This document shows positions 191 through 21,179 of a stretch of DNA of 24,248 bases, piece after piece. This DNA is from Candidatus Geocrenenecus huangii (GTDB lineage: Archaea > Thermoproteota > Nitrososphaeria_A > Caldarchaeales > Wolframiiraptoraceae). Every line of letters begins with the position of its first letter. Position 1 is the first letter of the stretch. The notes under the pieces were generated by a model. It ran no database searches. It was not told the DNA's origin and saw only the letters and a program-made list of their open reading frames with translations. Position numbers and translations under genes: made by a program. The stretch is taken from positions 42,067 to 66,314 of the forward strand of contig JALNLM010000008.1 of the NCBI GenBank assembly GCA_023254095.1, given 5' to 3'.

Positions 191-2092
191 ATGAGGAGAA
201 ATAGTCGTAATCCTATACTTTATCCTGTAAGAGAGCATTCATGGGAAGCATACGCAGTCTTTAATCCATCTGTAGTTAAGAAGGGTAGATATTACTACAT
301 GATCTATCGTGCTGTTTCCTCCTCTGATTTATTGAAGAGGCAGGGGTCAAGCTACAGCTCAATAGGTATAGCTAAAAGTAGAGATGGAGTACACTTTTAT
401 GAACGTAGAAGATTCATCGTCCCTGAGAAAGATTGGGAATTATTCGGATGCGAAGACCCTAGAGCAACATATCTAGAAGGTAGATTTTACATCTTCTATA
501 CAGCTATATCTACTCTCCCACCAACAGCTGAAGGAATTAGAGTCGGAGTAGCAATAACCAGAGACTTAAAACAAATCGAAGAAAAATATCTAGTAACTTC
601 CTTTAACGCTAAAGCCATGGCCCTCTTCCCAAAAAGAATTAATAAGAAACTCACAACAGTACTCACGGTCCACACAGATAAGCCTCCAGCATACATCGCT
701 GTAGCTCAGTTAAGCGATAATCCATCTAACTGGGTCTACGAAATGGATGAATGGTATCGTGAACTCACCGATCACATACTTACACCTGATCCTAGAAGAT
801 CACAGTTAGACCATATAGAAGTTGGAGCACCGCCCATAAAACTAGATGATGGTTGGCTCTTAATATACTCCTACATACAGAACTATTTCTCACCTAAGAT
901 AGAAGATAGAGTCTTCGGAGTAGAAGCGCTCCTCCTAGATCTAGATGACCCGAGAAAAGTAATCAGGAAAACTAGCTATCCATTTATTGTTCCAGAAGAA
1001 TTATATGAAAAATATGGAAATGTGCCTAACGTAGTCTTCCCAACATCCGCTATTCTGAGGAAAAATACCATAAGAATATATTATGGTGCTGCAGATACCA
1101 CGTGTTGCCTATTGACATCCAAGGTCAATGAAATTACTAAAATCATGGATGGAGGAGCAAATGAGATTTTTGAAAGATGTCCCTGGAACCCTATCATAAC
1201 CCCTGATCCTGAACATGATTGGGAGAGTTTATGTACGTTCAACCCGGCAGCAATAGAACTTGAAGGAAGAATCTACATTTTATATCGAGCTCTATCAAGT
1301 GACAAAACATCATCGATAGGTTTAGCAATATCAAGAGATGGATTCAACATAGATGAAAGACTCGATAAACCAGTATACGTTCCACGCGAGAAGTTCGAGA
1401 TGAAGCTCACTCCAGGGCATTCAGGCTGTGAAGACCCTAGAGTAATAAGATTAGACGATAAACTATATATGTTTTATACAGCCTACAATAATGTTCATCC
1501 ACCCAAGGTTGCATTAACATGGATATATGTAGACGACTTCCTAGAGATGGATTGGAGGTGGGCCACACCAAGGATAATTTCGCCACCAGACACAGACGAT
1601 AAGAATGCATGTATAATCCCAGAAAAGATCAACGATGCATACTTCTTTATTCATAGAGCAGGAGGTATACACATGGGATACGACTATATCAGAGACTTTG
1701 AATCGATCAATATAAACGAGTTGTTAAGCATAACTCTTTTATCACCGAGGGTTGGAATGTGGGATGGAAAGAAGGTTGGCCTAGCAGCTCCCCCTATAAA
1801 GACTGAGATGGGATGGCTAGTATTCTATCATGGCGTCTCACATGATAATGTCTATAGAGTCGGAGCATTCTTACTAGACTTGGAGACACCTGAAAAAATT
1901 ATAGGCAGAGCACTTAACCCACTTCTAGAACCAGTAGAATACTACGAGAAAGAAGGATACGTGAAAAACGTAGTATTCCCATGTGGTGCAGTAGTAAGAA
2001 ACGGCATGGTCTATCTCTATTATGGTGGAGCAGACACGTATGTATGCGTAGCGAGAGCAGAATTAAAAGAAATACTCTCAAGAATCATTTAA
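191..2092 (+). CDS. Tandem two-domain glycoside hydrolase family 130 protein (beta-mannoside phosphorylase/glycosidase-like)
   Basis: Two ~310-aa repeats, each with NPI..P, (V/T)FNP, Y..YRA, SIG.A.SRDG, GCEDPR, G.(A)PPIK...GWL..Y, NVVFP and YYG(A/G)ADT motifs typical of GH130 five-bladed beta-propellers. Confidence 0.88.
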   Translation: MRRNSRNPILYPVREHSWEAYAVFNPSVVKKGRYYYMIYRAVSSSDLLKRQGSSYSSIGIAKSRDGVHFYERRRFIVPEKDWELFGCEDPRATYLEGRFYIFYTAISTLPPTAEGIRVGVAITRDLKQIEEKYLVTSFNAKAMALFPKRINKKLTTVLTVHTDKPPAYIAVAQLSDNPSNWVYEMDEWYRELTDHILTPDPRRSQLDHIEVGAPPIKLDDGWLLIYSYIQNYFSPKIEDRVFGVEALLLDLDDPRKVIRKTSYPFIVPEELYEKYGNVPNVVFPTSAILRKNTIRIYYGAADTTCCLLTSKVNEITKIMDGGANEIFERCPWNPIITPDPEHDWESLCTFNPAAIELEGRIYILYRALSSDKTSSIGLAISRDGFNIDERLDKPVYVPREKFEMKLTPGHSGCEDPRVIRLDDKLYMFYTAYNNVHPPKVALTWIYVDDFLEMDWRWATPRIISPPDTDDKNACIIPEKINDAYFFIHRAGGIHMGYDYIRDFESININELLSITLLSPRVGMWDGKKVGLAAPPIKTEMGWLVFYHGVSHDNVYRVGAFLLDLETPEKIIGRALNPLLEPVEYYEKEGYVKNVVFPCGAVVRNGMVYLYYGGADTYVCVARAELKEILSRII

Positions 2093-2931: not shown

Positions 2932-4155
2932 TTATTTCTTCTTTAGTATTTCTACTCCTGGGAGGGTTTTCTTCGAGATGTATGTGATGAGGGCTCCTCC
3001 TCCAAGGCTTACGTAGGAAAAGTTTGCTGGGCTTAAACCGACTAGTTCTATGGCTGTTGATGAATCTCCTCCGCCAATCAATGTAAACGCTTTACATTTT
3101 GCTAACGCTTGATATATCTTTTCTGTTCCTTTTCTGAATTCTTCTTTCTCATATGCTCCAGCTGGACCTTTAACTATTATTGCATCCTCTCGGGATGTAT
3201 TCAAGATAATTTCAGCATATTTCTTAGCTGTTTTTTCACCTATATCATATATTGTTCCAGATGCGGGAAGCTTCTCCACATCTATCTCCACTCTTCTACC
3301 ATCTTGTTCATATGCTACATCTATCGGCTTCTTCAACTTATCTCCAAGTCTTTCATGTATCTTGGTTAAACGTTCTATATATGTATCGAATTTCTTCTTC
3401 TTAATATAAGATTCAGATGTTTCTCCTAGGTTCACTCCCTCAGTCATCAAGAACAATTGTCCAAGTATTCCTGCAGACAAGACGTGGCTTATCTTCTCAA
3501 TGTTTTTAGACATTACTGCATCAATGACTTCAATACATTCTTCGGGTTTGTTCCCGCCCATAACCAGCATTATCTTCCTATCTTCTTCTAGAACAGTAGT
3601 TATAGCTCTAAGTTCTTTCTCCATTACTCTCCCAGCTACCGTTGGTAGTAGATGGGAGAAACCTACAACTGATGCGTGGGCTCTATGAGCTACGGAGAAA
3701 GCATCTAGAACAAATAAGTCAGCTAGAGGTGCAAGAGTAGATACTAGCTTTCCTCTAGAATGTTCCTCAGGAGAAGCTTCTTTGGTTTCTTCATCCAGGA
3801 TCCTAACATTCTCGAGAAGTAGTATCTCCCCATTCTTCAATGATTTTACCGATTTTACTGCTTCTTCACCTACAAGGTCTGACACATATTTAACATGTCT
3901 GCCCACATGTTTCGATAATATTTCTGCGTGGTCTTTGAGTGGGAGAAAGTCTGGGTCCCCTTTTCTTCCTTGGTGTGCGAGGAGGACGACTTTCCCATTT
4001 TTTTCAGATAGCTCCTTGATCGTCTCAGCGTGAGCTCTAAGTCTTTCATTATCTCTAATTTTTCCAGTTTCTGGATCTATGGGCGAGTTTAGGTCAACTC
4101 TTACTATTACAGTCTTTCCCGACACGACTACATCGTCCAACGTTCTAAACCACAT
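2932..4155 (-). CDS. pgk: Phosphoglycerate kinase (archaeal type)
   Basis: VRVDLNSP, LAHQGR, LLENVR, DAFSVAHRAHAS, GRVMEKEL, IGGGDS and YVSLGGGA motifs. Confidence 0.97.
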   Translation of the reverse strand: MWFRTLDDVVVSGKTVIVRVDLNSPIDPETGKIRDNERLRAHAETIKELSEKNGKVVLLAHQGRKGDPDFLPLKDHAEILSKHVGRHVKYVSDLVGEEAVKSVKSLKNGEILLLENVRILDEETKEASPEEHSRGKLVSTLAPLADLFVLDAFSVAHRAHASVVGFSHLLPTVAGRVMEKELRAITTVLEEDRKIMLVMGGNKPEECIEVIDAVMSKNIEKISHVLSAGILGQLFLMTEGVNLGETSESYIKKKKFDTYIERLTKIHERLGDKLKKPIDVAYEQDGRRVEIDVEKLPASGTIYDIGEKTAKKYAEIILNTSREDAIIVKGPAGAYEKEEFRKGTEKIYQALAKCKAFTLIGGGDSSTAIELVGLSPANFSYVSLGGGALITYISKKTLPGVEILKKK

Positions 4156-4205: not shown

Positions 4206-5228
4206 TCAAAGCTTCTCCGCAATCATGTTCACTATATCGACGAGTCTGCAGCTGTATCCCCACTCATTGTCGTACCAGCCGAGAACCTTTACTATGTCAC
4301 TCCTCTCTCCGATAGTCATTATACTTAATCCGTCAATAATGCATGAGTGCGGGTTACCTATTATGTCGGCTGAAACGATCGGGTCTTCTGTATACTCCAT
4401 TATCTTCTTCATCTTACCCTCGGCCGCTGTCTTGTATGCCTTTCTAACTTCATCTACTGTTGTCTCTCTTTCGAGGACGGCTGTTAAGTCTGTAACTGAA
4501 CCATCCGGTACAGGTACTCTAAGAGCTATTCCATCCATTTTTCCTTTTACTTCAGGGATTACTAAGTGGAGTGCAGAAGCTGCTCCAGTAGTCGTAGGTA
4601 TTATGGATAAAGCTGCGGCTCTAGCTCTTCTCAGGTCTTTATGCACTAGGTCTAGAACTCTCTGGTCGTTCGTATAAGCGTGTACTGTTATCATGAATCC
4701 TTTCTTTATGCCGAAATTGTCTAAGAGTACTTTAACCATGGGTGCGAGACAGTTAGTTGTACATGATGCTGCAGAGATAACATTATGTTTAGACAAGTCT
4801 AGTACGTGGTCATTAACTCCAGGCACTATTGTTACATCCGCATCTTTGCATGGTGCTGTAACCAAGACTTTCTTAACAGTATCTCTAATATGTTTTGAAG
4901 CATCACTCTTCGAAGTGAATTGTCCAGTTGCCTCAACAACCACTTCTACTCCGACTTCATTCCAGGGTATCTGAGAAGGATCCTTAACACTGTACGCTAT
5001 CATCTCTTTCCCATCTACTGTTATGCTTTTATTGGTATATGAGATATCTTTATTGAGTCTGCGGTGTATTGAGTCGTACTTAAGAAGTAGAGCTGTAGTC
5101 TTCGTATCTGCTAATTCGTTGAAAGCTACGACTTCAAACATCTTTCCATATCTTGGATCTTCTAATGCAGCTCGTAGGAACAATCTACCAATTCTACCCA
5201 TTCCGTTAACTCCAACTCTCAGAACCAT
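4206..5228 (-). CDS. gap: Glyceraldehyde-3-phosphate dehydrogenase, class I (bacterial/eukaryotic type)
   Basis: VNGMGRIGR, catalytic SAASCTTNCLAP, HAYTNDQ, RRARAAA, IIPTTTGAA, RVPVPDGS and WYDNEWGYS are class I signatures. Confidence 0.97.
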   Translation of the reverse strand: MVLRVGVNGMGRIGRLFLRAALEDPRYGKMFEVVAFNELADTKTTALLLKYDSIHRRLNKDISYTNKSITVDGKEMIAYSVKDPSQIPWNEVGVEVVVEATGQFTSKSDASKHIRDTVKKVLVTAPCKDADVTIVPGVNDHVLDLSKHNVISAASCTTNCLAPMVKVLLDNFGIKKGFMITVHAYTNDQRVLDLVHKDLRRARAAALSIIPTTTGAASALHLVIPEVKGKMDGIALRVPVPDGSVTDLTAVLERETTVDEVRKAYKTAAEGKMKKIMEYTEDPIVSADIIGNPHSCIIDGLSIMTIGERSDIVKVLGWYDNEWGYSCRLVDIVNMIAEKL

Positions 5229-5316
5229 CTCAATTTAATTATCGTGAAGCTATATTTTTAGTTTTATGCATAAACAAGTTTTATATATTATGTTGTATCT
5301 CTATTTAAGTTTCTTA

Positions 5317-5339
5317 GTACATAAATTTATAATGTACAT
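5317..5339 (+). promoter_or_regulatory. TATA box (TTTATAA, 5326-5332) enclosed by inverted repeat GTACAT-N9-ATGTAC; candidate operator
   Basis: GTACAT at 5317-5322 and ATGTAC at 5332-5337; the ATG at 5358 is ~26 nt downstream of the TATA, consistent with a leaderless transcript. Confidence 0.5.
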
Positions 5340-5357: not shown

Positions 5358-6194
5358 ATGAGTAAGCACCGTACTAGCATAGAGTTTCCAGTAGAGTTAT
5401 GGGATGCGTTAAAGAGATATGTGCCTGCCAGAAAGAGGAGTTCATTCATTATTGAAGCAGTACGAGAAAGGTTGATGAGAGAATCATTAAAATGTTTAAT
5501 TCTGTGTGGGGGTAGAGGAACAGGTTTAACCCCCCTCACTTATAGTATACCTAAATCAATGATACCTATAGGATACAAGCCTTTACTTGAACATATTATA
5601 ATGTACATGAAGAAGCAAGGGATCTACAACTTCATTTTAGCAATAGGATATCTCGGCGAGCATTTAATAAAATATTTTGGAGATGGTAGACATATGGGTT
5701 TGTCGATCGATTATTCTATAGAGAAGTTTCCTCTCGGAACAGCAGGAGCAGTGAAGAACGCTGAAAAGAAATTGAATACTACCTTTCTAACAGTTAATGG
5801 AGACGTAATATTTACTGGATTAGACATACCGAGTTTAATTAAATATCATAGAGAAAAGAATAGTATTGCGACAATTGTTTTAACGAGGGTTGAAGATGCA
5901 AGAAGATTCGGCTTGGTTTCAATAGATGAAGAAGGGAGAGTTATAGCATTTAGAGAGAAACCTAGACAACCTGTTCCAGGATTCGTTAATGCAGGCATCT
6001 ATGTATTTGAACCTGCTATATTTGATTATATACCATCTGACAGACCCTCCTCACTTGAAGAAGATGTATTCCCAGAACTTGCAGACCAGAATAAACTATA
6101 TGCATATCTCCATAATGGCTACTGGATAGATGTTGGAGATCAATCAGACTACGAGAAAGCTGTGAAAGATTTTTTTAACGGCATCCTACCGTAA
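5358..6194 (+). CDS. Fusion of N-terminal ribbon-helix-helix (CopG/Arc-like) domain and NTP-transferase (sugar-1-phosphate nucleotidyltransferase, M1P-guanylyltransferase-like) domain
   Basis: Residues 1-40 (HRTSIEFPVELWDALKRYV...RSSFIIEAVRERL) fit the RHH pattern; then ILCGGRGTGLTPLT..PK, E..PLGTAGA, NGD, FREKP, NAGIY and GYWIDVG. Confidence 0.82.
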   Translation: MSKHRTSIEFPVELWDALKRYVPARKRSSFIIEAVRERLMRESLKCLILCGGRGTGLTPLTYSIPKSMIPIGYKPLLEHIIMYMKKQGIYNFILAIGYLGEHLIKYFGDGRHMGLSIDYSIEKFPLGTAGAVKNAEKKLNTTFLTVNGDVIFTGLDIPSLIKYHREKNSIATIVLTRVEDARRFGLVSIDEEGRVIAFREKPRQPVPGFVNAGIYVFEPAIFDYIPSDRPSSLEEDVFPELADQNKLYAYLHNGYWIDVGDQSDYEKAVKDFFNGILP

Positions 6195-6267
6195 ATATAA
6201 ACTTTATAATCTACTTATTTTTTTGTATTTACTTAGGGTTAAGTATTCCAGAAAACCGGTTATATAT

Positions 6268-6921
6268 ATGCCAAGACACCTCGAGTCGAGAATTTCTCTA
6301 CTAGTTGCTATATCAACAGTCTTTGGAGCATTGTCAGCCGTTCTTGCAATGATGCCTTTAAGTTTCTCTTTCCCATTAATACCTTACCTAAAATTCGATA
6401 TAGCTGAGATACCTGTGGTAACAGCTTTCTTAGGTTTTGGACCTTTTCCAGGATTTATCTCTGCATTAACTTATTGGCTGATCCTCAATATATTTGGAGA
6501 ATGGGCTCCCATAGGCCCAGCTATGAAATTTATTGCAGTAGCTTCTATGCTGGCTGGTTTATGGATATGCTGTAAGCTAAAATCAAGATTTATAGCATCA
6601 TGGCTTACGGTATTCTTATTCAGTAGCTTAATGAGGATTATAGCAACATCCATCTCTAACTACGTGCTTCTAGCAGTAACAATGCCCTTCTTTCTAGAAT
6701 ATGCTGTAAAATTCCTATCTCTAGCTCTAGGCGTGGAGGTAGAAACTGGAATAGGAGGTTTACTAATAATCCTATTCTTCACCGCTATCTACAATACATT
6801 ACACGTAGCGTTAAGCCTGTTTCCATCAATAATACTTGTAAAGAACTTCAGTAAACAAGGCTTGTTCCTAAGTCTTAGAGAACCATGGATAATAGCATTA
6901 GTGAAGCAGAAGAAAGATTAA
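6268..6921 (+). CDS. ECF transporter S-component (RibU-like), second paralogue
   Basis: FPLIPYLKFDIAEIP motif, IGP.MK motif shared with the 2248 protein, multiple TM helices. ATG 6268 preferred over TTG 6223 (TATA-like TTAAGTA at ~6239-6245). Confidence 0.75.
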   Translation: MPRHLESRISLLVAISTVFGALSAVLAMMPLSFSFPLIPYLKFDIAEIPVVTAFLGFGPFPGFISALTYWLILNIFGEWAPIGPAMKFIAVASMLAGLWICCKLKSRFIASWLTVFLFSSLMRIIATSISNYVLLAVTMPFFLEYAVKFLSLALGVEVETGIGGLLIILFFTAIYNTLHVALSLFPSIILVKNFSKQGLFLSLREPWIIALVKQKKD

Positions 6922-10876: not shown

Positions 10877-12049
10877 CTGAAAGCAGTTATTGTTGGAGTA
10901 GGAGCGGTAGGGTCAGTTATAGCTAAACATCTTGCGAAAAGCGAAGAAATTGAAGAATTAATACTTGCAGATAAATACTATGATAGAGCTAAGAAGGTAG
11001 CGTTAGAAACAGGTAGAAAGAAGGTAATTCCAAAGAGAGTAAATGCGATGAATATTGAGCAGGTAGTTAGAATCGCTAAGAATTCGGATGTATTGATCAA
11101 TGCGACTCTCCCGAGATTCAATATTCAGTTGATGAAAGCTTCTCTTAAATCTGGAGCACACTACATAGACCTAGCAAGTGACGATCCAGACCAGCAGCTG
11201 AAATTCCATGAAGCATTTAAAGAAGGAGGATTAACAGGAATAATCTGCATGGGTGAAGACCCAGGATTATCTAATCTTTTCGCTAGATATGCTGCAGACC
11301 AATTAACAAAAGTAGAATCTATAAAGATTAGAGACTGTGAAAGCAGTATAGTTAAAGGCATGAGAAGCCATCTAACACCGCTCTTCTCTAAAGAAGTATA
11401 CTTTGCAGAACTTTTTGAATCCGCATACATTTATCAGAATGGTAGATTTAAGAAGCTTCCACCTCTGAGCGGATATGAAGAATACGAGTTTCCATCACCT
11501 ATTAACAGGTTACCCGTATACGCTGTCTCACATGAAGAAGTCTTCACGCTTCCCAAATACATTAAAGGCATAAAATATGTAGACTTTAAGCTCTCCATAC
11601 CTAAAGATGTAGTCCAAATACTAAAAGTACTAAAAGTAATTGGTCTACTCAGTAAGAAGAAAGTTAAGGTCGACGGTCAGGAGGTTTCGCCTGCCAGGGT
11701 TCTCTACGCTGTTTTACCGAATCCTGAAGAGCTTGCTGGTAAAGTATCGGGATATGCTGGAATAGCCGTAGAAGTTAAAGGAAAGAAAGGTAGAAAACAT
11801 ATGAAGTACACTATCTATACGATGATGAGCCATGAAGAAGCATACGAGGAATTTGATACGACCGCTACAGCATACTTAACCGGGACACCTCCAGCCGCAC
11901 TCGCAATAATGCTAGGAGAAGAAGAGATCAAGGCTAGAGGAGTCTATCCACCTGAATATTTATCCCCAACACCCATACTTCAAAACCTAGCAGAATACGA
12001 TATTAGAATACATTCAATAGTAACAGAAGAAGCACCAATACATCTCTAA
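10877..12049 (+). CDS. Saccharopine dehydrogenase / carboxy(nor)spermidine dehydrogenase-fold NAD(P)-dependent oxidoreductase, paralogue 1 (CTG start)
   Basis: The frame is open upstream of ATG 11048 and encodes the Rossmann motif KAVIVGVGAVG starting right after CTG 10877; downstream HYIDLA, GEDPGLSNLFARY, HEEV and AYLTG.P motifs. Confidence 0.85.
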   Translation: MKAVIVGVGAVGSVIAKHLAKSEEIEELILADKYYDRAKKVALETGRKKVIPKRVNAMNIEQVVRIAKNSDVLINATLPRFNIQLMKASLKSGAHYIDLASDDPDQQLKFHEAFKEGGLTGIICMGEDPGLSNLFARYAADQLTKVESIKIRDCESSIVKGMRSHLTPLFSKEVYFAELFESAYIYQNGRFKKLPPLSGYEEYEFPSPINRLPVYAVSHEEVFTLPKYIKGIKYVDFKLSIPKDVVQILKVLKVIGLLSKKKVKVDGQEVSPARVLYAVLPNPEELAGKVSGYAGIAVEVKGKKGRKHMKYTIYTMMSHEEAYEEFDTTATAYLTGTPPAALAIMLGEEEIKARGVYPPEYLSPTPILQNLAEYDIRIHSIVTEEAPIHL

Positions 12050-13112: not shown

Positions 13113-13187
13113 GGGGCCGTGGTCTAGCATGGCTATGATACGCGGCTTGGGCCCGCGTGGTCCTGGGTTCAAATCCCAGCGGCCCCA
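13113..13187 (+). tRNA. tRNA-Pro (anticodon TGG), intron-less, CCA not encoded
   Basis: Acceptor stem GGGGCCG/CGGCCCC with discriminator A; anticodon arm CGCGG-CTTGGGC-CCGCG; T arm CTGGG-TTCAAAT-CCCAG. Confidence 0.96.
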
Positions 13188-13427
13188 TTATATGGTGAGC
13201 TATGTTGGTAGTAGCATATGCTTCTTGAGATGGTTTTTCGAGCTGCCTATGCTTCCGCTATATCGTGAACCCAGCGAGTTCATAGAACCTCAACAAATCC
13301 CATACTCTAACGCATAGAATGGAAGAAGACTTAGACATATATGAAGATGTTGTAGAGGTAGAATATCTGAGTTGCTTCTTTACGTCACCCGATCTAGAAG
13401 ATATAGTAGAAGTAAGGGATGGTGGAG

Positions 13428-13583
13428 ATGGCTAGAGTCTTCAGGCAGGGAGACCTGATTCTGAGAGAATCTAAACTGCTCCCAAACATCTATAGGGGGA
13501 GGAGATATATTAATCGTGGATAGTGAGATAGGCATAACCTCAGACTCAGTGATAATTTTCCTAGCATATTACCCTCATCCTTA
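13428..13583 (+). pseudogene. Probable decayed fragment of a small RQGD-motif hypothetical protein
   Basis: SD-like GGTGG then ATG 13428 encoding MARVFRQGDLILRE...; stop at 13523, with a plausible continuation GDILIVDSEIG in a shifted frame from ~13501. Confidence 0.3.
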
Positions 13584-13709
13584 AGGAGTGGATGACATCA
13601 TATACAAAGCTTAGGAAGAGTGTTGACAGCTGCTTCGGCTTTATTCATGGGGGTCTTTATAGTATGTTGGTAAATGAAGTAAAACATATATTATTAATAT
13701 GTGTTTTAT

Positions 13710-13940
13710 ATGAAAACCATAACAGTCTCTGACGAAGTATATGAGGAGTTAGAGAGCATAAAAGGTAAACGATCTTTCTCCGAGGTCATAAACTTTCTCA
13801 TTAAGTCTAATGTGTCGCTAAGGATTGAGAAGATTTTATCATTATCGAATTACTTAACGGGTAGTGAGGATGAAATGCTAGAAGTAGTAAAGAGAATAAA
13901 GGCGGAGTTCAGAGTGAGAACGTATGAGGCTTCTCATTGA
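13710..13940 (+). CDS. vapB: VapB-type antitoxin (archaeal MKTITVS-DEVY family)
   Basis: MKTITVSDEVYEELESIKGKRSFSEVI pattern; overlaps the downstream PIN gene by 17 nt. Confidence 0.85.
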   Translation: MKTITVSDEVYEELESIKGKRSFSEVINFLIKSNVSLRIEKILSLSNYLTGSEDEMLEVVKRIKAEFRVRTYEASH

Positions 13941-14270
13941 CACGAGCTTCTTAATAGCTCTTAAGAAGGGAGATCTGAAAGCACGTAAAACTCTGGAATC
14001 TCTGAAAGATAAAGTGGAAGACATAGGAATAAGTAGATTAACAGAGTATTATCTTATGGTTGGAGCGCTTTATCTGTGGAGAAAATACGGATATGCAAGA
14101 GAACTTGCATGGCTTGACGAAGCTCTAAAATGGTAACGATATACGACGTTGATGATGAAGTCATTAGACTTGCATCCAAGATTAAGGTTGAAGCATTACT
14201 GAAAGGTGAGGAGATTTATGACGTCGACTTGATGATAGCGGTTTCCGGAACCCGGTCTCTAACAATATAG
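13924..14270 (+). pseudogene. vapC: VapC PIN-domain toxin, frameshifted and C-terminally truncated
   Basis: LLIDTSFLI and IS.LT..E-like motifs up to TAA 14134-14136. The PIN continuation VTIYDVDDEVIRLASKI...G..I.DVDLMIA is in the -1 frame (14133-14270) and ends without the usual L.T.D motif. Confidence 0.8.
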
Positions 14271-14399
14271 ACAGCAAATAAGTAGTCGTAACTATTGTTG
14301 ATTGTAATTTTAGAAAACTGTGTAGAAATTATATGTTGATTATAGATCTTAGGTTATGTTTTTGTAGAAGATGTTCTTGAATATTTTTAGGTGTTTGTA

Positions 14400-14612
14400 A
14401 TGTCTCAGAGGATATGTAGAATTGATTCAAATCTTAAGAGTTGTAATTGTACTTACGAGCCATGCCCTAGGAAAGGTATATGCTGTGAATGTCTACGCTA
14501 TCATTGGAGTCATCGTGAGCTTCCAGCATGTTTCTTTCCCCCTGAGATAGAGAGAACATACGATAGATCTTTGAAAACATTCATAAATTATTGGGGCAAG
14601 AAGATAAGGTAA
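14400..14612 (+). CDS. Small Cys-rich conserved protein (DUF6485-like, probable metal-binding)
   Basis: CNCTYEPCPRKGICCECLRYH...ELPACFF...E.TYDRS pattern with 8 Cys; SD-like AGGTG before ATG 14400. Confidence 0.75.
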   Translation: MSQRICRIDSNLKSCNCTYEPCPRKGICCECLRYHWSHRELPACFFPPEIERTYDRSLKTFINYWGKKIR

Positions 14613-14732
14613 CGGATATCCAGTGACCAAGTCTTCTAAGCGGATCGAGTAGATTTTAACCCGTGTAGCCGGCCAACCTGTCGTTATGAACCTATCTTCC
14701 TAAGCCATTATTTCAGGATACAAATTTTATTT

Positions 14733-15785
14733 TTAGATGTTCGGCATACTAGACTCTTTATTTGAGGTTAGATGTTGATAATATTCTCTTGGAGAGAGTT
14801 CAGGATAATCTCTTGATCGTGTTGCGATGCATCTCCTCATATCTAAGCATAGATGGCATTTAGATATGTAGCCGCCAACTTTTTCTTTATAGTTAAATTC
14901 TTTTACGACAAATTTGTAGAGTTCCCCTAGGTTCTTGTTTATCAACATTTCTAGTATCGGTTTATCATCCAATTCTATTCCTTCTTCTACTAGTTGGTCT
15001 AGTTTTCTTGCATCTCCAAGCGATATTCCTCCACAATATCCTGTCATATAGTTTCCATAGTTATCGATATGCGCATGCCATTCTCTGAGAAGACTTGACC
15101 TACAGTTTTCTCTGAAGAAGACGTGGGCAGGATATTTATTGAATAGGTGTCTAAGCTGGTAACATGCTCGACCCATAGGTATGAGCTCGACCATTTCTAA
15201 ACCCTCAACTCCATACATCCTTATGTAGTCTTCAAACTTGAGTAATCCTCTTAGATTCGCTTCTTTAAACTGTTTATAGAACTCGTATTGATATATCATT
15301 GTATTTATTCCGAAGACTTTGAAGCTTGATATGATGTTGTTTTCTATTCTCTCGAAGGGTATGTACTCGGTTATGAATGGGTTAACACTTACCAGTATCC
15401 CGTCGAGTCCGGCTTCTTTAAGTTCCCTCAACCTCTCAATAGTCTTCTCGGGATCCATGCACCAGAAAGAGTTTGTTTCAACAAAGGTCGAGGGTATACC
15501 ATGTTCTTTTGCGATTTCTACCGCTTCCAGAAGAAGAGAGTAGTTTAGGAATGGCTCGCCTCCTGTAAAATGTAACCCATAGTTAATTCCCACCCTAGAG
15601 ACTCCATATGGTGAAGGCATGATCTTGTCTGAGAGCTGGGAGAGTATCGTTTTTAAATCATTTATCGTTATCCAATCGTTACTCCATCTAGGCGAGCATG
15701 CATACATACAATGCCTGCATTCAGAGTTACATCTATATGAGAAGAGTATACCGCATGAGGTAGGCGTAGGTGGAATAATCTTCAT
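14733..15785 (-). CDS. Radical SAM protein of unknown function
   Basis: CxxxCxxC (RCNSECRHCMY), FTGGEPF, ETN and C-terminal Cys motifs (GYCGG, KCHLC). Confidence 0.9.
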   Translation of the reverse strand: MKIIPPTPTSCGILFSYRCNSECRHCMYACSPRWSNDWITINDLKTILSQLSDKIMPSPYGVSRVGINYGLHFTGGEPFLNYSLLLEAVEIAKEHGIPSTFVETNSFWCMDPEKTIERLRELKEAGLDGILVSVNPFITEYIPFERIENNIISSFKVFGINTMIYQYEFYKQFKEANLRGLLKFEDYIRMYGVEGLEMVELIPMGRACYQLRHLFNKYPAHVFFRENCRSSLLREWHAHIDNYGNYMTGYCGGISLGDARKLDQLVEEGIELDDKPILEMLINKNLGELYKFVVKEFNYKEKVGGYISKCHLCLDMRRCIATRSRDYPELSPREYYQHLTSNKESSMPNI

Positions 15786-15891: not shown

Positions 15892-17109
15892 CTATAAGGG
15901 TTCCCTGAGCTCCGATATTCTTCTTTCTTCAAATATCAATGGTAAGTTATGTTTCGTCAATTCTTTAATGAATGGCTGGGGGTTAAGCTGCTCGGGGAAG
16001 AGTAACCCTTTCCCTCTTAATTCCCCTCTAAGTAGTAGGCTGACTCCTATGGCTGCAGGTAAACCCACGAGGTATGAAGTACCGTTAACTCCTACTCTGT
16101 CATACGCTTCTTTATGCGAGATATATGTGAAAATCTTCTGCGATAGAAAGGCATCATTTTTTCTTCCTTTGACTTCTACTTCAATGCCGGCGTATCCCTG
16201 AATGTCTACTAAATCTATTGGTTGGGGTAAAACCTCGACGACCACGTCAAAAGGTGATACCTGCACTCCCTTGACGTTAACTTTCTCTCTAGATAGTAGC
16301 TTCATCTTCCACAGAGCTCTAATGATCTCTGCAGATAATCCATCATAATTATACCAGAATGATATTCTTCTTGCTTTCTTTGGAAGGAATACCGAGAGAG
16401 TCCAGACTTCCGGATGTTCTTTTAGATAGATTTTCTTAACTTTTACTGGATCAGGGAAAACGTGTTCTTGGCAGATGCTTAGAGGCTCAGCCTTCTTGAA
16501 TACTCCGTCTTCATAGTATATAGCTGGAGCGATACTTGACAATAATAATTCTTCTCTACTCCATAATGGTACAATGATAAACCTATTATCTTCAACCGTG
16601 TCCGCGTCTCTTATCACCACCTCATCTAATTCATCGAAATTCTCTACTAAGTATCTTGCAAAGATATTTGAGAGGCCAGGGTCTTCTCCTAACCCCAGTA
16701 TCCCAGTCAACTCATTCTTTCTCCATTCAGAATCTCTCTGTAGATGTAGCTCAACCATTTCCTTAAATCTGGAGCCTTCTTCTATCCATAATTCTTCTCC
16801 ACCGGTTAGACTTATAAAGTTGCATTTATTCCTCAAGCAGTTTTCTATAAGGTTTAGATTCAAGGAATAATGTGCTGCGTTAACTAGGATGCTCGCATTC
16901 TTCATTAATTTACTTAGTTGGTCTGAATTTCTCGCATCAACTTTATGTATAGATATCTTTTCCCTCCCGTATTTTTCTTCGAGATGTTTAAGATTCTTTT
17001 CAGATATATCTACTGCTATGATCTGGTCTACTAACGGGTCTGGGATGAGGGTGGAGACGATAACGTGGCCGACCCCACCCACACCAATAACCATGACGTT
17101 TCCAGACAA
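15892..17109 (-). CDS. Saccharopine/carboxyspermidine dehydrogenase-fold oxidoreductase, paralogue 2
   Basis: VIGVGGVG Rossmann motif, GEDPGLSNIFARY, HPEV and SYLVG.P motifs. TTG 17109 preferred as start because GGGAGAGGGTG lies just upstream (ORF track extends to 17139). Confidence 0.85.
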   Translation of the reverse strand: MSGNVMVIGVGGVGHVIVSTLIPDPLVDQIIAVDISEKNLKHLEEKYGREKISIHKVDARNSDQLSKLMKNASILVNAAHYSLNLNLIENCLRNKCNFISLTGGEELWIEEGSRFKEMVELHLQRDSEWRKNELTGILGLGEDPGLSNIFARYLVENFDELDEVVIRDADTVEDNRFIIVPLWSREELLLSSIAPAIYYEDGVFKKAEPLSICQEHVFPDPVKVKKIYLKEHPEVWTLSVFLPKKARRISFWYNYDGLSAEIIRALWKMKLLSREKVNVKGVQVSPFDVVVEVLPQPIDLVDIQGYAGIEVEVKGRKNDAFLSQKIFTYISHKEAYDRVGVNGTSYLVGLPAAIGVSLLLRGELRGKGLLFPEQLNPQPFIKELTKHNLPLIFEERRISELREPL

Positions 17110-17236
17110 AGAACACCCTCTCCCACTCAAGCCTAACAATTAGTAATACATGCATAAATTCTTTAATTATGAATAAAAATAAAGAATAGATGAAATATGC
17201 AAAAATTAGGCTTAACTAGAATGAATAATATAAGAT

Positions 17237-18394
17237 CTACCATTTTTTCTCGATTCTTTCTCCAATCACTATATTTTTGCGGCTTAGGTTTTCTAGAAAC
17301 TTTTCTGCAGGTATACATACTTCAGGAGGCTTGACCCCCTTAAATCTTATCTCTTCTTTAACCATCATTTGAGCAGCGATTGATGCGGGGACTCCTGTAA
17401 GATAGCTGGAGGCCGATGTATTCCACTCCTTCTTTGAAGTCGACAATGCATACATTGAGTAGATGATATCTCTACCATCTTTCTTACCTATAATCTTAGT
17501 AAAGATGCATGCAGCATCATCTATCGTGTCTCTAGTTGGATCAAACATGCATCTCCTTAGGATATGAGTTGTGAAATCTTTTATGGAGAGCTCTAAATTA
17601 TCTATAGTTATATGCTGGTCAGAGAAGAATCCGAGCTTCTTGAGAATATCAATCATGTCAAAATCGTAATTTATCTTAAAGTCTACATATCTTAATCCTT
17701 TACCAATGTATTTAGGGATGGTTGCAAGCTCTGAGTGAAGACTGAAACAAACTTTCACTCTCCCAACAGGTTCTGGAAACTCGAACTCTTCTACTCCACT
17801 AAGTGGCGGCACCTCTTCACACTTTCCATCCTTAAAGATTACAGCGTTCCTCGTCCATTCATCCATCATGGTTTTTACAGAAAATTTGAATATGGCTCTC
17901 TGCGGAGGCCTTAAATCTCTATCTCCATCTCTAATCAAGATAGAGTCTACTTCATCGAGTCTATCTGAAACATATCTTGCCAAGATGTTGCTTATGCCAG
18001 GATCTTCTCCGCAACCGATTAGTATAGATGCTTCGGCTCTCCTAGCATCATCGTCCAAGTCCAGCTGCTTCAAAGTCATATAGTATAATCCACCTAGATC
18101 GATGAGTCTAGCTTTCGCGTTTATAGCCGCCCTCGTCGCCTCCAAGTTATACTCGAACCATGTTGAATTGATTGTTACATCATATTTCTTCATCTCTTCT
18201 GCGAGGAGATCCACTCTTCTAACATCTATATACCTAAATGATAATCTACCATCGTTGATCGATTTAATGAATCTGAGAGCTCGGTCTCTATCTATCTCTC
18301 CTATGACGACTTCTTCTACACTGTCGCTTGATAGTAGGTCTCTAACTATTACTGAGCCTATCGCCCCAGCCCCTCCCAATACTAGAAACTTCAT
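17237..18394 (-). CDS. Saccharopine/carboxyspermidine dehydrogenase-fold oxidoreductase, paralogue 3
   Basis: VLGGAGAIG, IDLGGLY, GCGEDPGISNILARY, HSEL and SYLTG.P motifs; SD GGTGAGGT upstream of the ATG. Confidence 0.88.
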   Translation of the reverse strand: MKFLVLGGAGAIGSVIVRDLLSSDSVEEVVIGEIDRDRALRFIKSINDGRLSFRYIDVRRVDLLAEEMKKYDVTINSTWFEYNLEATRAAINAKARLIDLGGLYYMTLKQLDLDDDARRAEASILIGCGEDPGISNILARYVSDRLDEVDSILIRDGDRDLRPPQRAIFKFSVKTMMDEWTRNAVIFKDGKCEEVPPLSGVEEFEFPEPVGRVKVCFSLHSELATIPKYIGKGLRYVDFKINYDFDMIDILKKLGFFSDQHITIDNLELSIKDFTTHILRRCMFDPTRDTIDDAACIFTKIIGKKDGRDIIYSMYALSTSKKEWNTSASSYLTGVPASIAAQMMVKEEIRFKGVKPPEVCIPAEKFLENLSRKNIVIGERIEKKW

Positions 18395-18424: not shown

Positions 18425-19486
18425 CTAGATGGGTACTATGAGGCTTGAGTTCTTTCTCCATCCTATCTCGACAAAGTCTCCGGGATGGTGCATCCTCTCT
18501 AGTTCTGCTGATCCATGTTTATGGACTATGAATGTATTGCCTTGTACGTCCACTCGATACTCTATATATGAGCCCTTGAATATTATTGATTGTACTGTAC
18601 CCTTAAACAGGTTATCTACATCGTGTAGCTTATCGCTTATCTCAACCATCTCCGGTCTAACCATCACCGCCACCCTGCCTTTTGTTAAAGACTCAGTACA
18701 GTAGATTGTTCCAAGGCTTGTATCTACTAGACCGTTTTCTCGAACTTCACCCTCAATGAGGTTTACGGCTTCGCCTATGAAGGATGCGACGAACGTATTG
18801 GATGGCCTATAGTAGATCTCTAAAGGCGTACCCACTTGCTGTACTTTTCCATCTTTCATTATAGCTATCCTATCAGACATAGTCATCGCCTCGGTCTGGT
18901 CATGTGTAACATATATGAATGTTGTCTTGACTCTTCTCTGAATATTCTTCAACTCGACCATCATATGCTGTCTTATCTTTAAGTCTAGTGCTCCTAGCGG
19001 TTCATCTAGGAGGAGGACTTCAGGCTCAATGACGAGTGCACGAGCTAGGGCGACACGCTGCTGCTGACCGCCGCTAAGCTGGTTTACCCTCCTATTTTCT
19101 AATCCTTCAAGCTTTACGATTTCTAGAATCTTCTTTACTTGCCTCCTTATTTCCTCTTTTTGAACCTTTCTCATTTTTAATCCGAAAGCTATGTTTTCGA
19201 ATACATTCATGTGTGGGAATAATGCAAGATGCTGGAAGACCATTCCTATGTTTCTCTTATGTGTGGGCACGTCCGTGACGTCTTCACCATATATTTTGAC
19301 TATTCCTTCATCGGGTTCTTCCAGTCCAGCGATTATCCTCAAGGTTGTTGTTTTACCACATCCTGAAGGTCCTAAGAGAGAGAAGAACTCATTTTCCCTA
19401 ATCTTCAAGTTAACATGGTCTACTGCCACTACGTTCCCAAATCTTTTAACTATGTTCTCCAACTCTACAGAGAATACGTCATTCAT
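18425..19486 (-). CDS. potA: Polyamine-type ABC transporter ATP-binding subunit
   Basis: Walker A GPSGCGKT, LSGGQQQRVALARAL, LLLDEPLGALD, YVTHDQ.EA and C-terminal TOBE domain; ATGA overlap with potC. Confidence 0.9.
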   Translation of the reverse strand: MNDVFSVELENIVKRFGNVVAVDHVNLKIRENEFFSLLGPSGCGKTTTLRIIAGLEEPDEGIVKIYGEDVTDVPTHKRNIGMVFQHLALFPHMNVFENIAFGLKMRKVQKEEIRRQVKKILEIVKLEGLENRRVNQLSGGQQQRVALARALVIEPEVLLLDEPLGALDLKIRQHMMVELKNIQRRVKTTFIYVTHDQTEAMTMSDRIAIMKDGKVQQVGTPLEIYYRPSNTFVASFIGEAVNLIEGEVRENGLVDTSLGTIYCTESLTKGRVAVMVRPEMVEISDKLHDVDNLFKGTVQSIIFKGSYIEYRVDVQGNTFIVHKHGSAELERMHHPGDFVEIGWRKNSSLIVPI

Positions 19487-20262
19487 CTCTCCAACCTCCT
19501 CTCAGCCCTCAATCTGAAAACTGCGAATAGGAAGGAGATAGATAAAGCAAAGGATGATAGGGAGTTCAGTTCTGGTGAGACCCCTCCCCTAGCGGCTGAA
19601 GACCATACTATCAATGGGAGTGTCTTGAATCCTGGACCCGTGGTAAAGAGCGTTTTTATCAAGTCGTCGAAGCTCAACGTGAATGCTAGGAGACCCGCTG
19701 CGAGTATTGCAGGATAGAGTGTCGGTAGCGTTATCCTGAAGAAGGTCTGGAACTCGTTGGCTCCCAATGTTCTCGCTGCTTCTTCAATTGATTTATCGTA
19801 TCCCGCCATCCTCGCTCGCATCACTATTGTAACGAATGAAACATCGAATGCTATGTGACCTATTATGACGGTTACCGGGCCGAGAGGTATATTTAAGAAA
19901 ATATACATTATTAGTAGTGAGAGAGCTTCCGCAATCTCTGGTATAATCACAGGTATAAGTATTAAGCTTTCGAGAATGCTTTTTCCACTAAAACTATATC
20001 TTGTAACAGCCATGGCCATCATTAATCCTAGGACCAATGAGACGATCGTTACCACGGCTCCAACCCAGAAGGAATTGAATAAGGCTTTCCAGACTTCAGG
20101 ATTATTGATAACCTTCTCATACCATCTAAATGAGAAATTCGTGAAAACCCCTATAGACTTAGATTCATTGAATGAGAAAACCACCATTACAATTATTGGA
20201 GAGTAGAGGAATAGGAAAACCAAGATAGTGAAGATCTTAAGAAATGGAGTTGTCCCCTTCAT
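19483..20262 (-). CDS. potC: Polyamine-type ABC transporter permease
   Basis: FLYSPI...FSFN, FS.RWY, EEAARTLGA (EAA loop), FTLSFDD and TLP motifs; TAATG overlap with potB. Confidence 0.88.
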   Translation of the reverse strand: MKGTTPFLKIFTILVFLFLYSPIIVMVVFSFNESKSIGVFTNFSFRWYEKVINNPEVWKALFNSFWVGAVVTIVSLVLGLMMAMAVTRYSFSGKSILESLILIPVIIPEIAEALSLLIMYIFLNIPLGPVTVIIGHIAFDVSFVTIVMRARMAGYDKSIEEAARTLGANEFQTFFRITLPTLYPAILAAGLLAFTLSFDDLIKTLFTTGPGFKTLPLIVWSSAARGGVSPELNSLSSFALSISFLFAVFRLRAERRLER

Positions 20263-21104
20263 TAAAATGCTAGCCCCCTCTCCCCTATCTTCCTAACGTA
20301 AGCTATAACTAATGATAAGATAAAAGCGATAAACAGCATTGAGAGCGCTGAGCCTATCCACCAATGTCTTGCACCCATAAAGAATTCGTAGATCAAGTTG
20401 CCGACCATGTAGTTGTTAGGTCCTCCGACCAACTCGGGTATAACGAACTCGCCTACAGTCGGTATAAAGACTAGTAGGAACCCAGCCAATATCCCAGGCA
20501 TGCTTAGAGGAAGAGTTACTTTTAAGAATGTTCTAACAGGTCCTGCGCCAAGAGTAGATGCAGCTTCTAGTAAGGTCTTATCGAGTTTCTCGAGATTCGC
20601 GTATAGCGGTAGAACCATCATTACTAAGTAGTCATAAACCATTACCAAGATGACGGCAGCGTCTGTATACATTATCTTGATCGGTGAATCGATTAATCCA
20701 AGCGAAGTTAGCAATGTGTTCAAGAAGCTTCTTTCATCGAGTATGCTCATCATCGCATACGTTCTTAGAAGGAAGCTAACCCAGAAAGGTATTATGAACA
20801 ATATTATGAAGAGGTCCTTATATTTTTTGATTTTAAAAGAAATATAGTAGGCTACAGGGTATCCTATGAGGAGACACAATAGTACAGTAACCCCTGCAAA
20901 ATAGAGTGAGCGAAGGAATATTCCCATGGCCCCGGTCCAGCTTAATACCCTAGAGTAATGTACTAGAGAAGGTGTAAAAACTATCTGACGATTAATATTA
21001 ATCATGTCGAAACTGTATAACCCAACTATAAAGAATGGAGCGTAAAACCAGATTGCCAAGAATAGCAGTGGCGGAGTGAGAAGAAATGATATCTTCACAA
21101 CCAC
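20262..21104 (-). CDS. potB: Polyamine-type ABC transporter permease (true start may be further upstream, at ACG 21146)
   Basis: IGYPVAY, PFWVSFLLRTYA, LLEAASTLGA, TLPLSMPG and P..GEFVIP.LVGG motifs. Confidence 0.88.
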   Translation of the reverse strand: MVVKISFLLTPPLLFLAIWFYAPFFIVGLYSFDMININRQIVFTPSLVHYSRVLSWTGAMGIFLRSLYFAGVTVLLCLLIGYPVAYYISFKIKKYKDLFIILFIIPFWVSFLLRTYAMMSILDERSFLNTLLTSLGLIDSPIKIMYTDAAVILVMVYDYLVMMVLPLYANLEKLDKTLLEAASTLGAGPVRTFLKVTLPLSMPGILAGFLLVFIPTVGEFVIPELVGGPNNYMVGNLIYEFFMGARHWWIGSALSMLFIAFILSLVIAYVRKIGERGLAF

Positions 21105-21179
21105 GTTTCTTCTTATATGTTTTAGTAAAGTATCGCTGAAGCCCGTCTACTCCCCCCTCCTAGAGAGCATATGGAGGCT

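Follow-up and report, generated by a model that had tools for sequence, protein, structure and literature searches.

What is a nucleotidyltransferase that carries a putative DNA-binding module, and has lost a conserved arginine of its signature motif, doing next to the genes gap and pgk? The question is posed by a 24,248-nt stretch of Candidatus Geocrenenecus huangii (Caldarchaeales, Wolframiiraptoraceae; contig JALNLM010000008.1), here called the window, in which one gene (5358..6194, plus strand; ATG start, 278 aa plus stop) joins a predicted ribbon-helix-helix (RHH) module to a sugar nucleotidyltransferase fold. On balance we lean towards an autoregulated one-component regulator of gluconeogenic genes, whose enzyme-derived domain would sense a nucleoside diphosphate (NDP)-sugar or a sugar-1-phosphate.

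The presumed target is the divergent neighbor gap (4206..5228, minus strand), which encodes a type I glyceraldehyde-3-phosphate dehydrogenase (GAPDH) and is separated by 129 nt from the start codon of the fusion; pgk, for phosphoglycerate kinase (PGK), follows gap on the same strand (2932..4155, minus strand). This divergent arrangement had been described in an initial annotation of the window, as had an RHH-like module continuous with a nucleoside triphosphate (NTP)-transferase domain that reads GGRGTGL and lacks a hexapeptide domain, and all of it is borne out by the open reading frame, Pfam and alignments. The RHH-like module, delimited by structure models, fold matches and profile matches, occupies aa 1-42 (5358..5483, plus strand) and comprises the strand KHRTSIEF and helices at 12-21 and 24-42. 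The GMPP/RmlA-type NTP_transferase fold, which we take to be the sensor domain, spans aa 46-271 (5493..6170, plus strand), where PF00483 matches with an E-value of 1.5e-47 (162.6 bits against a cut-off of 21.2). At E<=1, NTP_transferase and NTP_transf_3 are the only Pfam matches of the protein; Pfam finds no hexapeptide or further C-terminal domain in its 278 residues, and the chain stops after the nucleotidyltransferase fold, while unfused relatives of 340-395 residues bear hexapeptide-repeat domains. The fold is matched by 8x7s, VTC1 and GMPPB (Foldseek E 1e-22 to 1e-24). The best NCBIfam model, NF052502 (mycobacterial-type mannose-1-phosphate guanylyltransferase), scores 219.3 bits, under its cut-off of 440, and TIGR03992 (archaeal GlmU-type bifunctional) 163.2 bits, under its cut-off of 292.1, indicating a member of the GMPP/RmlA/GlmU branch that is an equivalog of neither.

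The architecture is shared by a family. Among the 120 listed homologs of our protein search, to which all homolog counts refer, 59 clusters of ~275-305 residues span the full query at 47-100% identity and have the same architecture; they include the clade of the window protein (clade A; 37 clusters, 61-100% identity) and a sister fused clade (clade B; 22 clusters). In a scanned genome collection, the fused protein is encoded at 35 loci, which belong to Caldarchaeales/Aigarchaeota (Geocrenenecus, Wolframiiraptor, Benthortus), Aenigmatarchaeota, Geothermarchaeota and unclassified archaea; the nearest relatives of the window protein are from Geocrenenecus (89-90% identity). Databases label the family 'nucleotidyltransferase family protein' or 'mannose-1-phosphate guanylyltransferase'. 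The N-termini of its members align without gaps, with KHRTSIEFP..LW near-invariant even where overall identity falls to ~50%, and across 18 sampled loci there is no variation at 11 N-terminal positions, among them K3, H4, R5, T6, S7, E9, W15, R25, F30 and L39; synonymous DNA differences underlie these invariant residues. Because the N-terminus is conserved at this level and a promoter-like element is placed for M1, we exclude a start at the internal Met40 (MRESLK), a possibility that the initial annotation had raised against itself. A word-indexed protein search with aa 1-45 returned 12 candidates, all close relatives.

Several lines of evidence indicate that the N-terminus likely adopts an RHH fold. 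The AlphaFold model (pLDDT 86.6 for the whole protein and 82.7 for residues 1-45) has a strand at 5-10 and helices at 12-21 and 24-42 (24-44 in one model), the beta-alpha-alpha topology of RHH proteins. When the module was compared with 48,161 representative chains (VIA-align), ranks 1-9 were all RHH proteins, with Z-scores of 4.5-3.9 over 41-45 aligned residues: CopA_SO (6iya, Z 4.5), the PutA RHH-DNA complex (2rbf, Z 4.4), TacA, Omega, ParB-pCXC100, NikR, YiiF and Rv0298. Arc, AmrZ, ParR, TraM and SvtR are further RHH matches, the whole set ranging from Z 4.5 to 3.3. An N-terminal profile searched against 1.84 billion representatives retrieved 72 proteins at E<=1e-3, one of them the family representative and the other 71 short (39-184 aa). 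Of the 40 best matches, 17 have weak Pfam matches to RHH_1, RHH_5, RHH_3 or HicB-RHH (E<=0.01), three exceeding the RHH_1 cut-off, and no other DNA-binding fold is consistent among these 40. If F10-P11 is paired with W14-P15 of Arc, as we assume, the outward strand residues would be K3, R5, S7 and E9, all invariant in the family; the strand K3-H4-R5-T6-S7-I8-E9 is the best-conserved stretch of the protein.

Set against the regulator reading is the reserve of the sequence-based searches. The best Pfam RHH match is sub-threshold (RHH_4, E 0.067, 13.7 bits versus 25) and occurs in 2 of 18 members; the N-terminal profile found no RHH protein among PDB sequences, its one match (E = 1) being due to chance; and Foldseek of the isolated N-terminal model returned nothing from the PDB at E<=0.001. 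An hhalign comparison with the CopG-type fused N-termini described below gave 7% probability, though with the strand and first helix in register, and every fold Z-score is below 5 (<=4.5, as expected at 45 residues). Structure prediction of a homodimer from two copies scored 0.06 and 0.01 against a mark of 0.42, which weighs neither way on dimerization. The RHH-like fold proposed in the initial annotation is thus likely in view of the strand-helix-helix models and the RHH fold matches, with profile links to short proteins that in part resemble RHH families; of the structure prediction and model searches suggested there, the first matched RHH proteins and the second did not reach a curated RHH model above threshold.

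A putative DNA-binding module calls for a site, and a candidate lies at the gene's own promoter. Across lineages, the 140 nt 5' of the start codon cannot be aligned save for one block, the flanks of which are not conserved. With a position-weight matrix refined on the upstream regions of the window and the 35 loci, this 22-nt block, with consensus TGCATAAAnnTTATATGTAnAT, is found in 32 of 36 upstream regions, beginning 37-50 nt before the start codon. In the window the candidate operator, TACATAAATTTATAATGTACAT (5318..5339, plus strand), is an inverted repeat around a TATA-like TTTATA: the arms GTACAT (5317-5322) and ATGTAC (5332-5337) flank TTTATA at 5326-5331 (-32 to -27), which is presumably where the TATA box of a nearly leaderless archaeal transcript would lie. 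The element is not a generic promoter and is unique in the 1.6-Mb genome: the window site scores 23.1 bits, with a slight bias in its favor as 1 of the 32 sites in the matrix, and the runner-up among 3.2 million positions on both strands scores 14.5. Within 291,693 nt of related loci, matches of at least 18 bits fall only at the regulator promoter and in the Geothermarchaeota locus L031, where the element (2805-2826) lies 34-55 nt ahead of the gap-pgk start and the region upstream of the regulator is without it. The Aenigmatarchaeota-like loci L033-L035 have the element twice, as overlapping copies with an offset of 17 nt. Of five distant genomes, four have their only matches with 0-1 mismatches beside the regulator gene, apart from one extra before an H+-pyrophosphatase (H+-PPase) gene; the fifth, G002, has just a 2-mismatch match, elsewhere, and the 2-mismatch matches in the five genomes mostly resemble AT-rich noise. 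An autoregulated repressor and its operator would be expected to show just this, a would-be reading strand without variation and a DNA element conserved to the same degree, in lineages whose proteins are only 52-57% identical.

Other sequences resembling the operator were considered separately. The extra match in the distant genomes, TACATAAAAGTTATATATATCC (1499-1520 of L056, from G005, the genome of L040), scores 17.1 bits with 1 mismatch to the core pattern and lies 42-63 nt ahead of the start of the membrane H+-PPase gene, which may be a second target, tied to pyrophosphate (PPi). Neither L055 nor L061, where sites also occur, offers a persuasive target gene. An exact 13-nt copy of the operator right arm, TTATAATGTACAT, occurs inside the coding sequence (5596-5608, plus strand; codons 80-84), 268 nt downstream; the first 11 nt have 4 genomic copies, this one among them, and the peptide encoded there is not conserved in relatives. 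The copy could be due to chance or be an auxiliary site. The perfect palindrome TTTATGCATAAA (5263..5274, assigned to neither strand), 35-46 nt ahead of the gap ATG, shares TGCATAAA with the operator left arm. We rejected it as a second operator: it aligns with the TATA-like GTTAAAAG of Caldarchaeales gap promoters and persists in L020, where gap is unlinked, and it is more likely the B recognition element (BRE)/TATA of gap. A second genomic copy of the palindrome falls within a coding region.

If the N-terminus were instead an oligomerization or regulatory extension that replaces the hexapeptide domain, the element would be read by another factor. This is compatible with the weakness of the RHH sequence matches and with the missing C-terminal left-handed beta-helix, presumably the assembly domain of the unfused relatives; yet the top fold matches are DNA-binding RHH proteins, the would-be DNA-reading strand K3-E9 is the best-conserved part of the protein, and the equally conserved DNA element co-occurs with it in 32 of 36 loci, and we regard this explanation as highly improbable.

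A GAPDH or PGK gene is the immediate neighbor in 28 of 34 informative loci. Of the 26 Caldarchaeales-type loci (L006-L028, L036-L038), 21 have a divergent type I gap within 111-343 nt. Nine distant loci tell more. Among them, the divergent neighbors are an archaeal-type GAPDH with a class V fructose-1,6-bisphosphate (FBP) aldolase/phosphatase (FBPase_3) in L029; an archaeal-type GAPDH, DUF2090, the FBPase GlpX and PGK in L032; PGK, GAPDH and triosephosphate isomerase (TIM) in L033 and L035; a fusion of phosphoenolpyruvate (PEP) synthase and PGK (PpsA-PGK, 1189 residues) with GAPDH in L034; and an archaeal-type GAPDH in L040. In L031 the genes for GAPDH, the regulator, type I gap and pgk stand in this order on a single strand. 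The neighbor in L030 is a HAD sugar-phosphatase-like gene, and the upstream sequence of L039 is too short to judge. By tblastn, the archaeal-type GAPDHs of L029, L032 and L040 have no detectable similarity to the type I gap of the window. Because GAPDHs of unrelated types are found beside the regulator, the linkage points to function rather than to one inherited gene pair, and the gap/pgk adjacency from which the initial annotation had proposed control of these genes recurs across phyla. In compact loci, with 70-110 nt between start codons, the element lies between both divergent promoters.

The reading frame of L034 (1359-4928, minus strand) deserves mention in its own right. Its 1189 aa comprise a complete PEP synthase (PPDK_N, mobile and PEP-binding domains) and a complete PGK in one frame, an unusual two-enzyme gluconeogenic fusion unless it is an assembly or frame artefact.

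The case for control of gap-pgk is less direct in the window lineage itself. Seen from the likely gap TATA, the element is a further ~70-100 nt away in the window and in other Caldarchaeales, and near gap there is no second site above 12 bits, so that control of gap-pgk here rests on adjacency and on other lineages. The matrix scan of the window's own genome found nothing above 14.5 bits beyond the self site, so that no regulon can be defined; the upstream regions of the FBPase (FBPase_3) and TIM genes of the same genome are without a site, and half-site words occur at chance level. The element is missing upstream of the regulator in L019, L020, L027 and L031, the first three of which are close relatives, and gap is 2-4 kb away in L020 and L023 and not within 5 kb in L019, L022 and L027. 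As for expression, two hot-spring metatranscriptomes (raw reads) yielded 0 reads; in two contig sets from sediment metatranscriptomes, coverage extends to the 5' part of gap and, of the regulator gene, to just 5989-6190 at depth 4, from which transcription starts are not readable.

These observations leave room for an autoregulator without a gap-pgk target, one that would control itself and perhaps the membrane-protein gene at 6223-6921, with gap adjacency as inherited synteny. The position of the operator at its own promoter, distant from the gap TATA in Caldarchaeales, fits such a regulator, as do the retention of an energy-coupling factor (ECF)-S-like membrane gene downstream in nearly all Caldarchaeales-type loci (28 of 29 as counted for this gene in L006-L028 and L036-L038) and the loss of gap linkage in L019, L020, L022, L023 and L027. 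We nevertheless find it distinctly unlikely, as the linkage recurs in distant lineages, in other gene orders and with non-orthologous GAPDH, the L031 element precedes gap-pgk and not the regulator, and the distant loci do not share the downstream membrane gene. That gene (plus strand) has no Pfam match; its product is weakly similar to that of an ECF-transporter S-component-like gene at 2239-2856, and translation probably begins from the ATG at 6268.

What, then, would a gluconeogenic regulator gain from a nucleotidyltransferase fold? The answer may lie in the residues it has lost and kept. In the leishmanial GDP-mannose pyrophosphorylase the signature is GGXGXR(L)XPLX5PK, in which the 'absolutely conserved' R21 'especially' anchors phosphates and an R23A exchange costs ~77% of activity (PMC9424295); this agrees with the statement of the initial annotation that the Arg of GxGTR contacts NTP phosphates. 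The same study describes human GMPP alpha subunits as inactive (PMC9424295). The window protein does not conform to this signature, GGxGxR(L)xPLx5PK with its phosphate-anchoring Arg. In its degenerate counterpart GGRGTGLTPLT (aa 51-61; 5508..5540, plus strand), alignments to solved GMPP/UGPase chains place G56 (5523-5525) at the Arg of GxGTR and T58 at the second Arg of most chains; the window motif GGRGTGLTPLTYSIPK thus has Gly56 and Thr58 for the two arginines and retains Gly51, Gly52, Gly54, Pro59 and Lys66.

The exchange is fixed in the clade. Every one of the 37 clade-A clusters has Gly at position 56, and each of the 54 unfused homologs longer than 330 residues has Arg there; of the 22 clade-B clusters, 15 have Arg and the remaining seven Gln, Met, Lys, Thr or Asp. 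At position 58, Arg stands in 21 of the 22 clade-B clusters and 38 of the 54 unfused homologs, and clade A mostly has Gly, Thr or Ser. The rest of the pocket is kept: none of the three sets shows more than slight variation, if any, at G51, G52, G54, P59, K66, E122, G127, T128, D149, F198, E200, K201, P202, N211, G213, E234, W256 and D258, and the sugar-phosphate/metal motifs F-x-EKP, NGD and W-x-D-x-G are present in fused and unfused proteins alike. We take F198, E200, K201, P202, D149, W256 and D258 to have the sugar-phosphate and metal roles of their counterparts in RmlA and GMPP. Three further NTP_transferase genes in the same genome all encode G-x-G-x-R-L. An otherwise complete pocket without its two phosphate-side arginines is what one would expect to see in a pseudoenzyme that still binds its ligand, or in an enzyme with very slow turnover, and we infer that catalysis would be impaired. 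R53, which according to the initial annotation could compensate, is not a conserved substitute, as it is present in just 8 of the 37 Arg-less clade-A clusters (Pro or Leu elsewhere) and no clade-specific basic residue has been gained. Arg loss and fusion go together in one direction only: the loss occurs only in RHH-fused proteins, and the fusion occurs without the loss in clade B (15 of 22) and in a second group (19 of 28; see below). P0059 (373 aa) begins MGMSPLS, the Arg-less clade-A motif cut at an internal Met, and still has hexapeptide-repeat domains at its C-terminus; this cluster could represent either an Arg-less relative with a beta-helix or a miscalled gene.

The second group carries a different, CopG-type N-terminus, seen in 5 of the first 120 hits, one of which has a precomputed RHH_1 match. 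A metagenome scan with these CopG-type fusions yielded 28 fused loci and 52 unfused. The critical residue is Arg in 19 of the fused proteins, Lys in 6 and Asn in 1, with a degenerate motif in 2; among the unfused matches it is Arg in 51 of 52, the other being unreadable. Neighbors were read in 24 loci. A phosphoglucomutase/phosphomannomutase (PGM/PMM) gene lies directly downstream in 6, every one Arg-keeping. Others are next to glycolytic or related genes: gap-pgk directly upstream in L090 and gap plus iPGM downstream in L096 (both Lys), a divergent GlpX in L083, phosphofructokinase (PFK) and archaeal GAPDH in L086, PFK and class II aldolase (FBA) in L091, PGK, aldolase and a PfkB kinase in L082, and a ROK kinase in L092 (Lys). 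Some of these contigs are bacterial, as judged by neighbors such as trigger factor and FtsH. In L071-L076 and L091, Arg-keeping CopG-type genes followed by a PGM/PMM gene occur on both archaeal and bacterial contigs, and such pairs are likely autoregulated two-step NDP-sugar operons. A tie between RHH-nucleotidyltransferase fusions and sugar-phosphate metabolism thus recurs, and only in fused forms does the Arg vary.

Two points caution against reading Gly56 as the end of catalysis. Eukaryotic UDP-glucose pyrophosphorylases of the UDPGP family are active without an Arg at this place, so that Gly56 is no proof of inactivity; and clade B retains the Arg alongside the same operator and context, so that an active enzyme-regulator is possible and loss of the Arg is not required for a regulatory role. 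The protein could accordingly be an active enzyme and autorepressor after the model of PutA or BirA, which makes an NDP-sugar, tunes its own gene through the RHH module, perhaps as the product-bound repressor, and has Gly56 compensated by R53 or by some other residue or subunit. Such an enzyme would explain why the remaining catalytic and substrate residues are invariant, why clade-B proteins keep the Arg under the same operator, why the six Arg-keeping genes of the second group precede PGM/PMM, as in a working NDP-sugar pathway, and why the genome's sole strong site is at the gene's own promoter. It would not explain why linkage to GAPDH/PGK recurs, and does so with two unrelated types, and it is at odds with Gly in 37 of 37 clade-A clusters versus Arg in 54 of 54 unfused homologs, with the rarity of R53 (8 of 37) and lack of any other gained basic residue, with the loss of the second Arg as well in the window protein, and with the availability of three canonical paralogs for NDP-sugar synthesis. 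We consider this explanation unlikely for the window protein. For the wider group the weighing differs, as Arg-keeping members share operator and context: the regulatory role seems older than the loss of the Arg, and working enzyme-repressors may be the ancestral state.

The preferred reading, a one-component regulator with an enzyme-derived sensor, can be put as a mechanism. The RHH module would dimerize and read the partly palindromic element; the bound protein would cover its own TATA box, block TBP/TFB and repress its own gene. Where the element lies between divergent promoters or before gap-pgk, it would confer control of GAPDH and PGK (plus TIM, FBPase and PEP synthase), and where geometry permits, the TATA of the neighboring gluconeogenic operon would be occluded too; in the window lineage, control of gap could be exerted from an upstream position, or be weak. 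An NDP-hexose or hexose-1-phosphate would be bound by the nucleotidyltransferase fold, turned over slowly or not at all, and alter DNA affinity. Without the phosphate-side arginines, NTP binding and PPi release would be impaired and sugar-phosphate and nucleoside binding kept. Gluconeogenesis ends in the hexose-phosphate/NDP-sugar pool, and the state of this pool would in this way be signaled to the promoter.

Which sugar might be sensed is speculative, and mannose-1-phosphate or GDP-mannose is our first guess, on the grounds that the best match is a mannose-1-phosphate guanylyltransferase and that a glycoside hydrolase family 130 (GH130) gene lies nearby. This gene (191-2092, plus strand; 633 aa), which L006 and L007 have as well, is 3 kb distant from the regulator and encodes a beta-1,4-mannooligosaccharide phosphorylase with an N-terminal GH43-like part; the product of the enzyme would presumably be mannose-1-phosphate.

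In Thermococcales, glycolysis is carried by glyceraldehyde-3-phosphate ferredoxin oxidoreductase (GAPOR). The window genome encodes seven AFOR-family tungstoenzymes, and Wolframiiraptoraceae have a GAPOR-like enzyme beside GAPDH/PGK, the flux-carrying route being left undecided in the published description (PMC9246946), a question on which a regulator of gap-pgk bears. If GAPOR is glycolytic and gap-pgk gluconeogenic, feedback from the NDP-sugar pool would be physiologically sensible.

More tentatively, and as a possibility rather than as our expectation, the two groups may represent a widespread archaeal, and in part bacterial, class of regulators that forms a series from active enzyme-repressors to pseudoenzyme sensors and includes a gap/pgk switch in Caldarchaeales, Aenigmatarchaeota and relatives. 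Active forms would keep the Arg and sit in operons with phosphomannomutase/phosphoglucomutase; sensor forms would have Gly, Lys, Asn, Gln or Met in its place and sit at gap/pgk promoters. The sensor would set the expression of gluconeogenic GAPDH/PGK against the NDP-sugar/hexose-1-phosphate pool, the role that TrmB/Tgr has in Euryarchaeota. Should the sensor reading of the window's family be right, the family would show clearly how a transcription factor can acquire its ligand sensor from a pseudoenzyme or near-dead enzyme, with natural 'before' (Arg kept) and 'after' (Arg lost) forms for comparison.

The remainder of the window contains a tRNA gene (13113-13187, plus strand; Rfam 57.9 bits) followed by ~1.5 kb (13190-14730) without an open reading frame of at least 80 aa, which may either be non-coding or be what is left of an integrated element. 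Three saccharopine-dehydrogenase-like paralogs (11048-12049, 15892-17139 and 17237-18394) are adjoined by a radical S-adenosylmethionine (SAM) gene (14733-15785) and an ABC transporter operon (18425-22352).

To our knowledge, regulators of the archaeal switch between glycolysis and gluconeogenesis are largely unknown beyond TrmB-type factors, GlpR and GfcR in Euryarchaeota. The literature searched, in which subscription journals are thinly covered, contains no description of an RHH-nucleotidyltransferase transcription factor, and we found in it no proposed glycolysis/gluconeogenesis regulator for Caldarchaeales (Aigarchaeota) or DPANN archaea. The fusion is a new architecture and probably represents a regulator family not previously recognized, acting on a central pathway in archaea that have been little studied. 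It provides a concrete candidate in that the 22-nt candidate operator is defined and the plausible ligands are few, though its hosts are uncultured or hard to grow.

Among known systems, the functional analogs are the sugar-sensing regulators of gap/pgk, namely the TrmB family (Tgr/TrmBL1 in Thermococcales, TrmB in haloarchaea) and GfcR in Haloferax, as described in the respective abstracts (PMC10817205, PMC2710871, PMC10838023). Their folds are unrelated to the fusion, consisting of a winged helix-turn-helix (HTH) with a sugar-binding or phosphoribosyltransferase (PRT)-like domain; Pfam at E<=1 finds no TrmB domain (PF01978) in the fusion protein, and a separate TrmB-like gene is present in the window genome. 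BirA and NadR combine a DNA-binding domain with an adenylyl- or nucleotidyl-transferring enzyme, the ligand or product state of which controls repression, but they are bacterial, have an HTH rather than an RHH domain, are active enzymes and belong to other folds. Human GMPPA and the large subunit of plant ADP-glucose pyrophosphorylase (AGPase) are closer on the sensor side: each is a non-catalytic nucleotidyltransferase paralog kept as a sensor or regulator of an NDP-sugar pathway, the matches of the window protein by fold and by sequence include GMPPA/GMPPB (7d72), and an Arg-to-Lys change in the AGPase large subunit was reportedly described by Ballicora and co-workers in 2005. These paralogs, however, exert allosteric control of a catalytic partner and have no DNA-binding domain. 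On the DNA side, NikR, two chains of which are among the fold matches (1q5v, Z 4.1; 2bj1, Z 3.7), is likewise a one-component repressor composed of an RHH and a ligand-binding domain, with an operator of two separated half-sites, but its sensor, an ACT-like nickel-binding tetramerization domain, is not derived from an enzyme. Finally, PutA of E. coli and Salmonella has full dehydrogenase activity and alternates between binding DNA and the membrane, whereas the fusion described here has an archaeal nucleotidyltransferase fold without the key Arg, and its neighbor genes are not those for the substrates of the enzyme fold; the likeness is that PutA, the second-best fold match (2rbf), also carries an N-terminal RHH module on an enzyme and represses a divergent promoter region.

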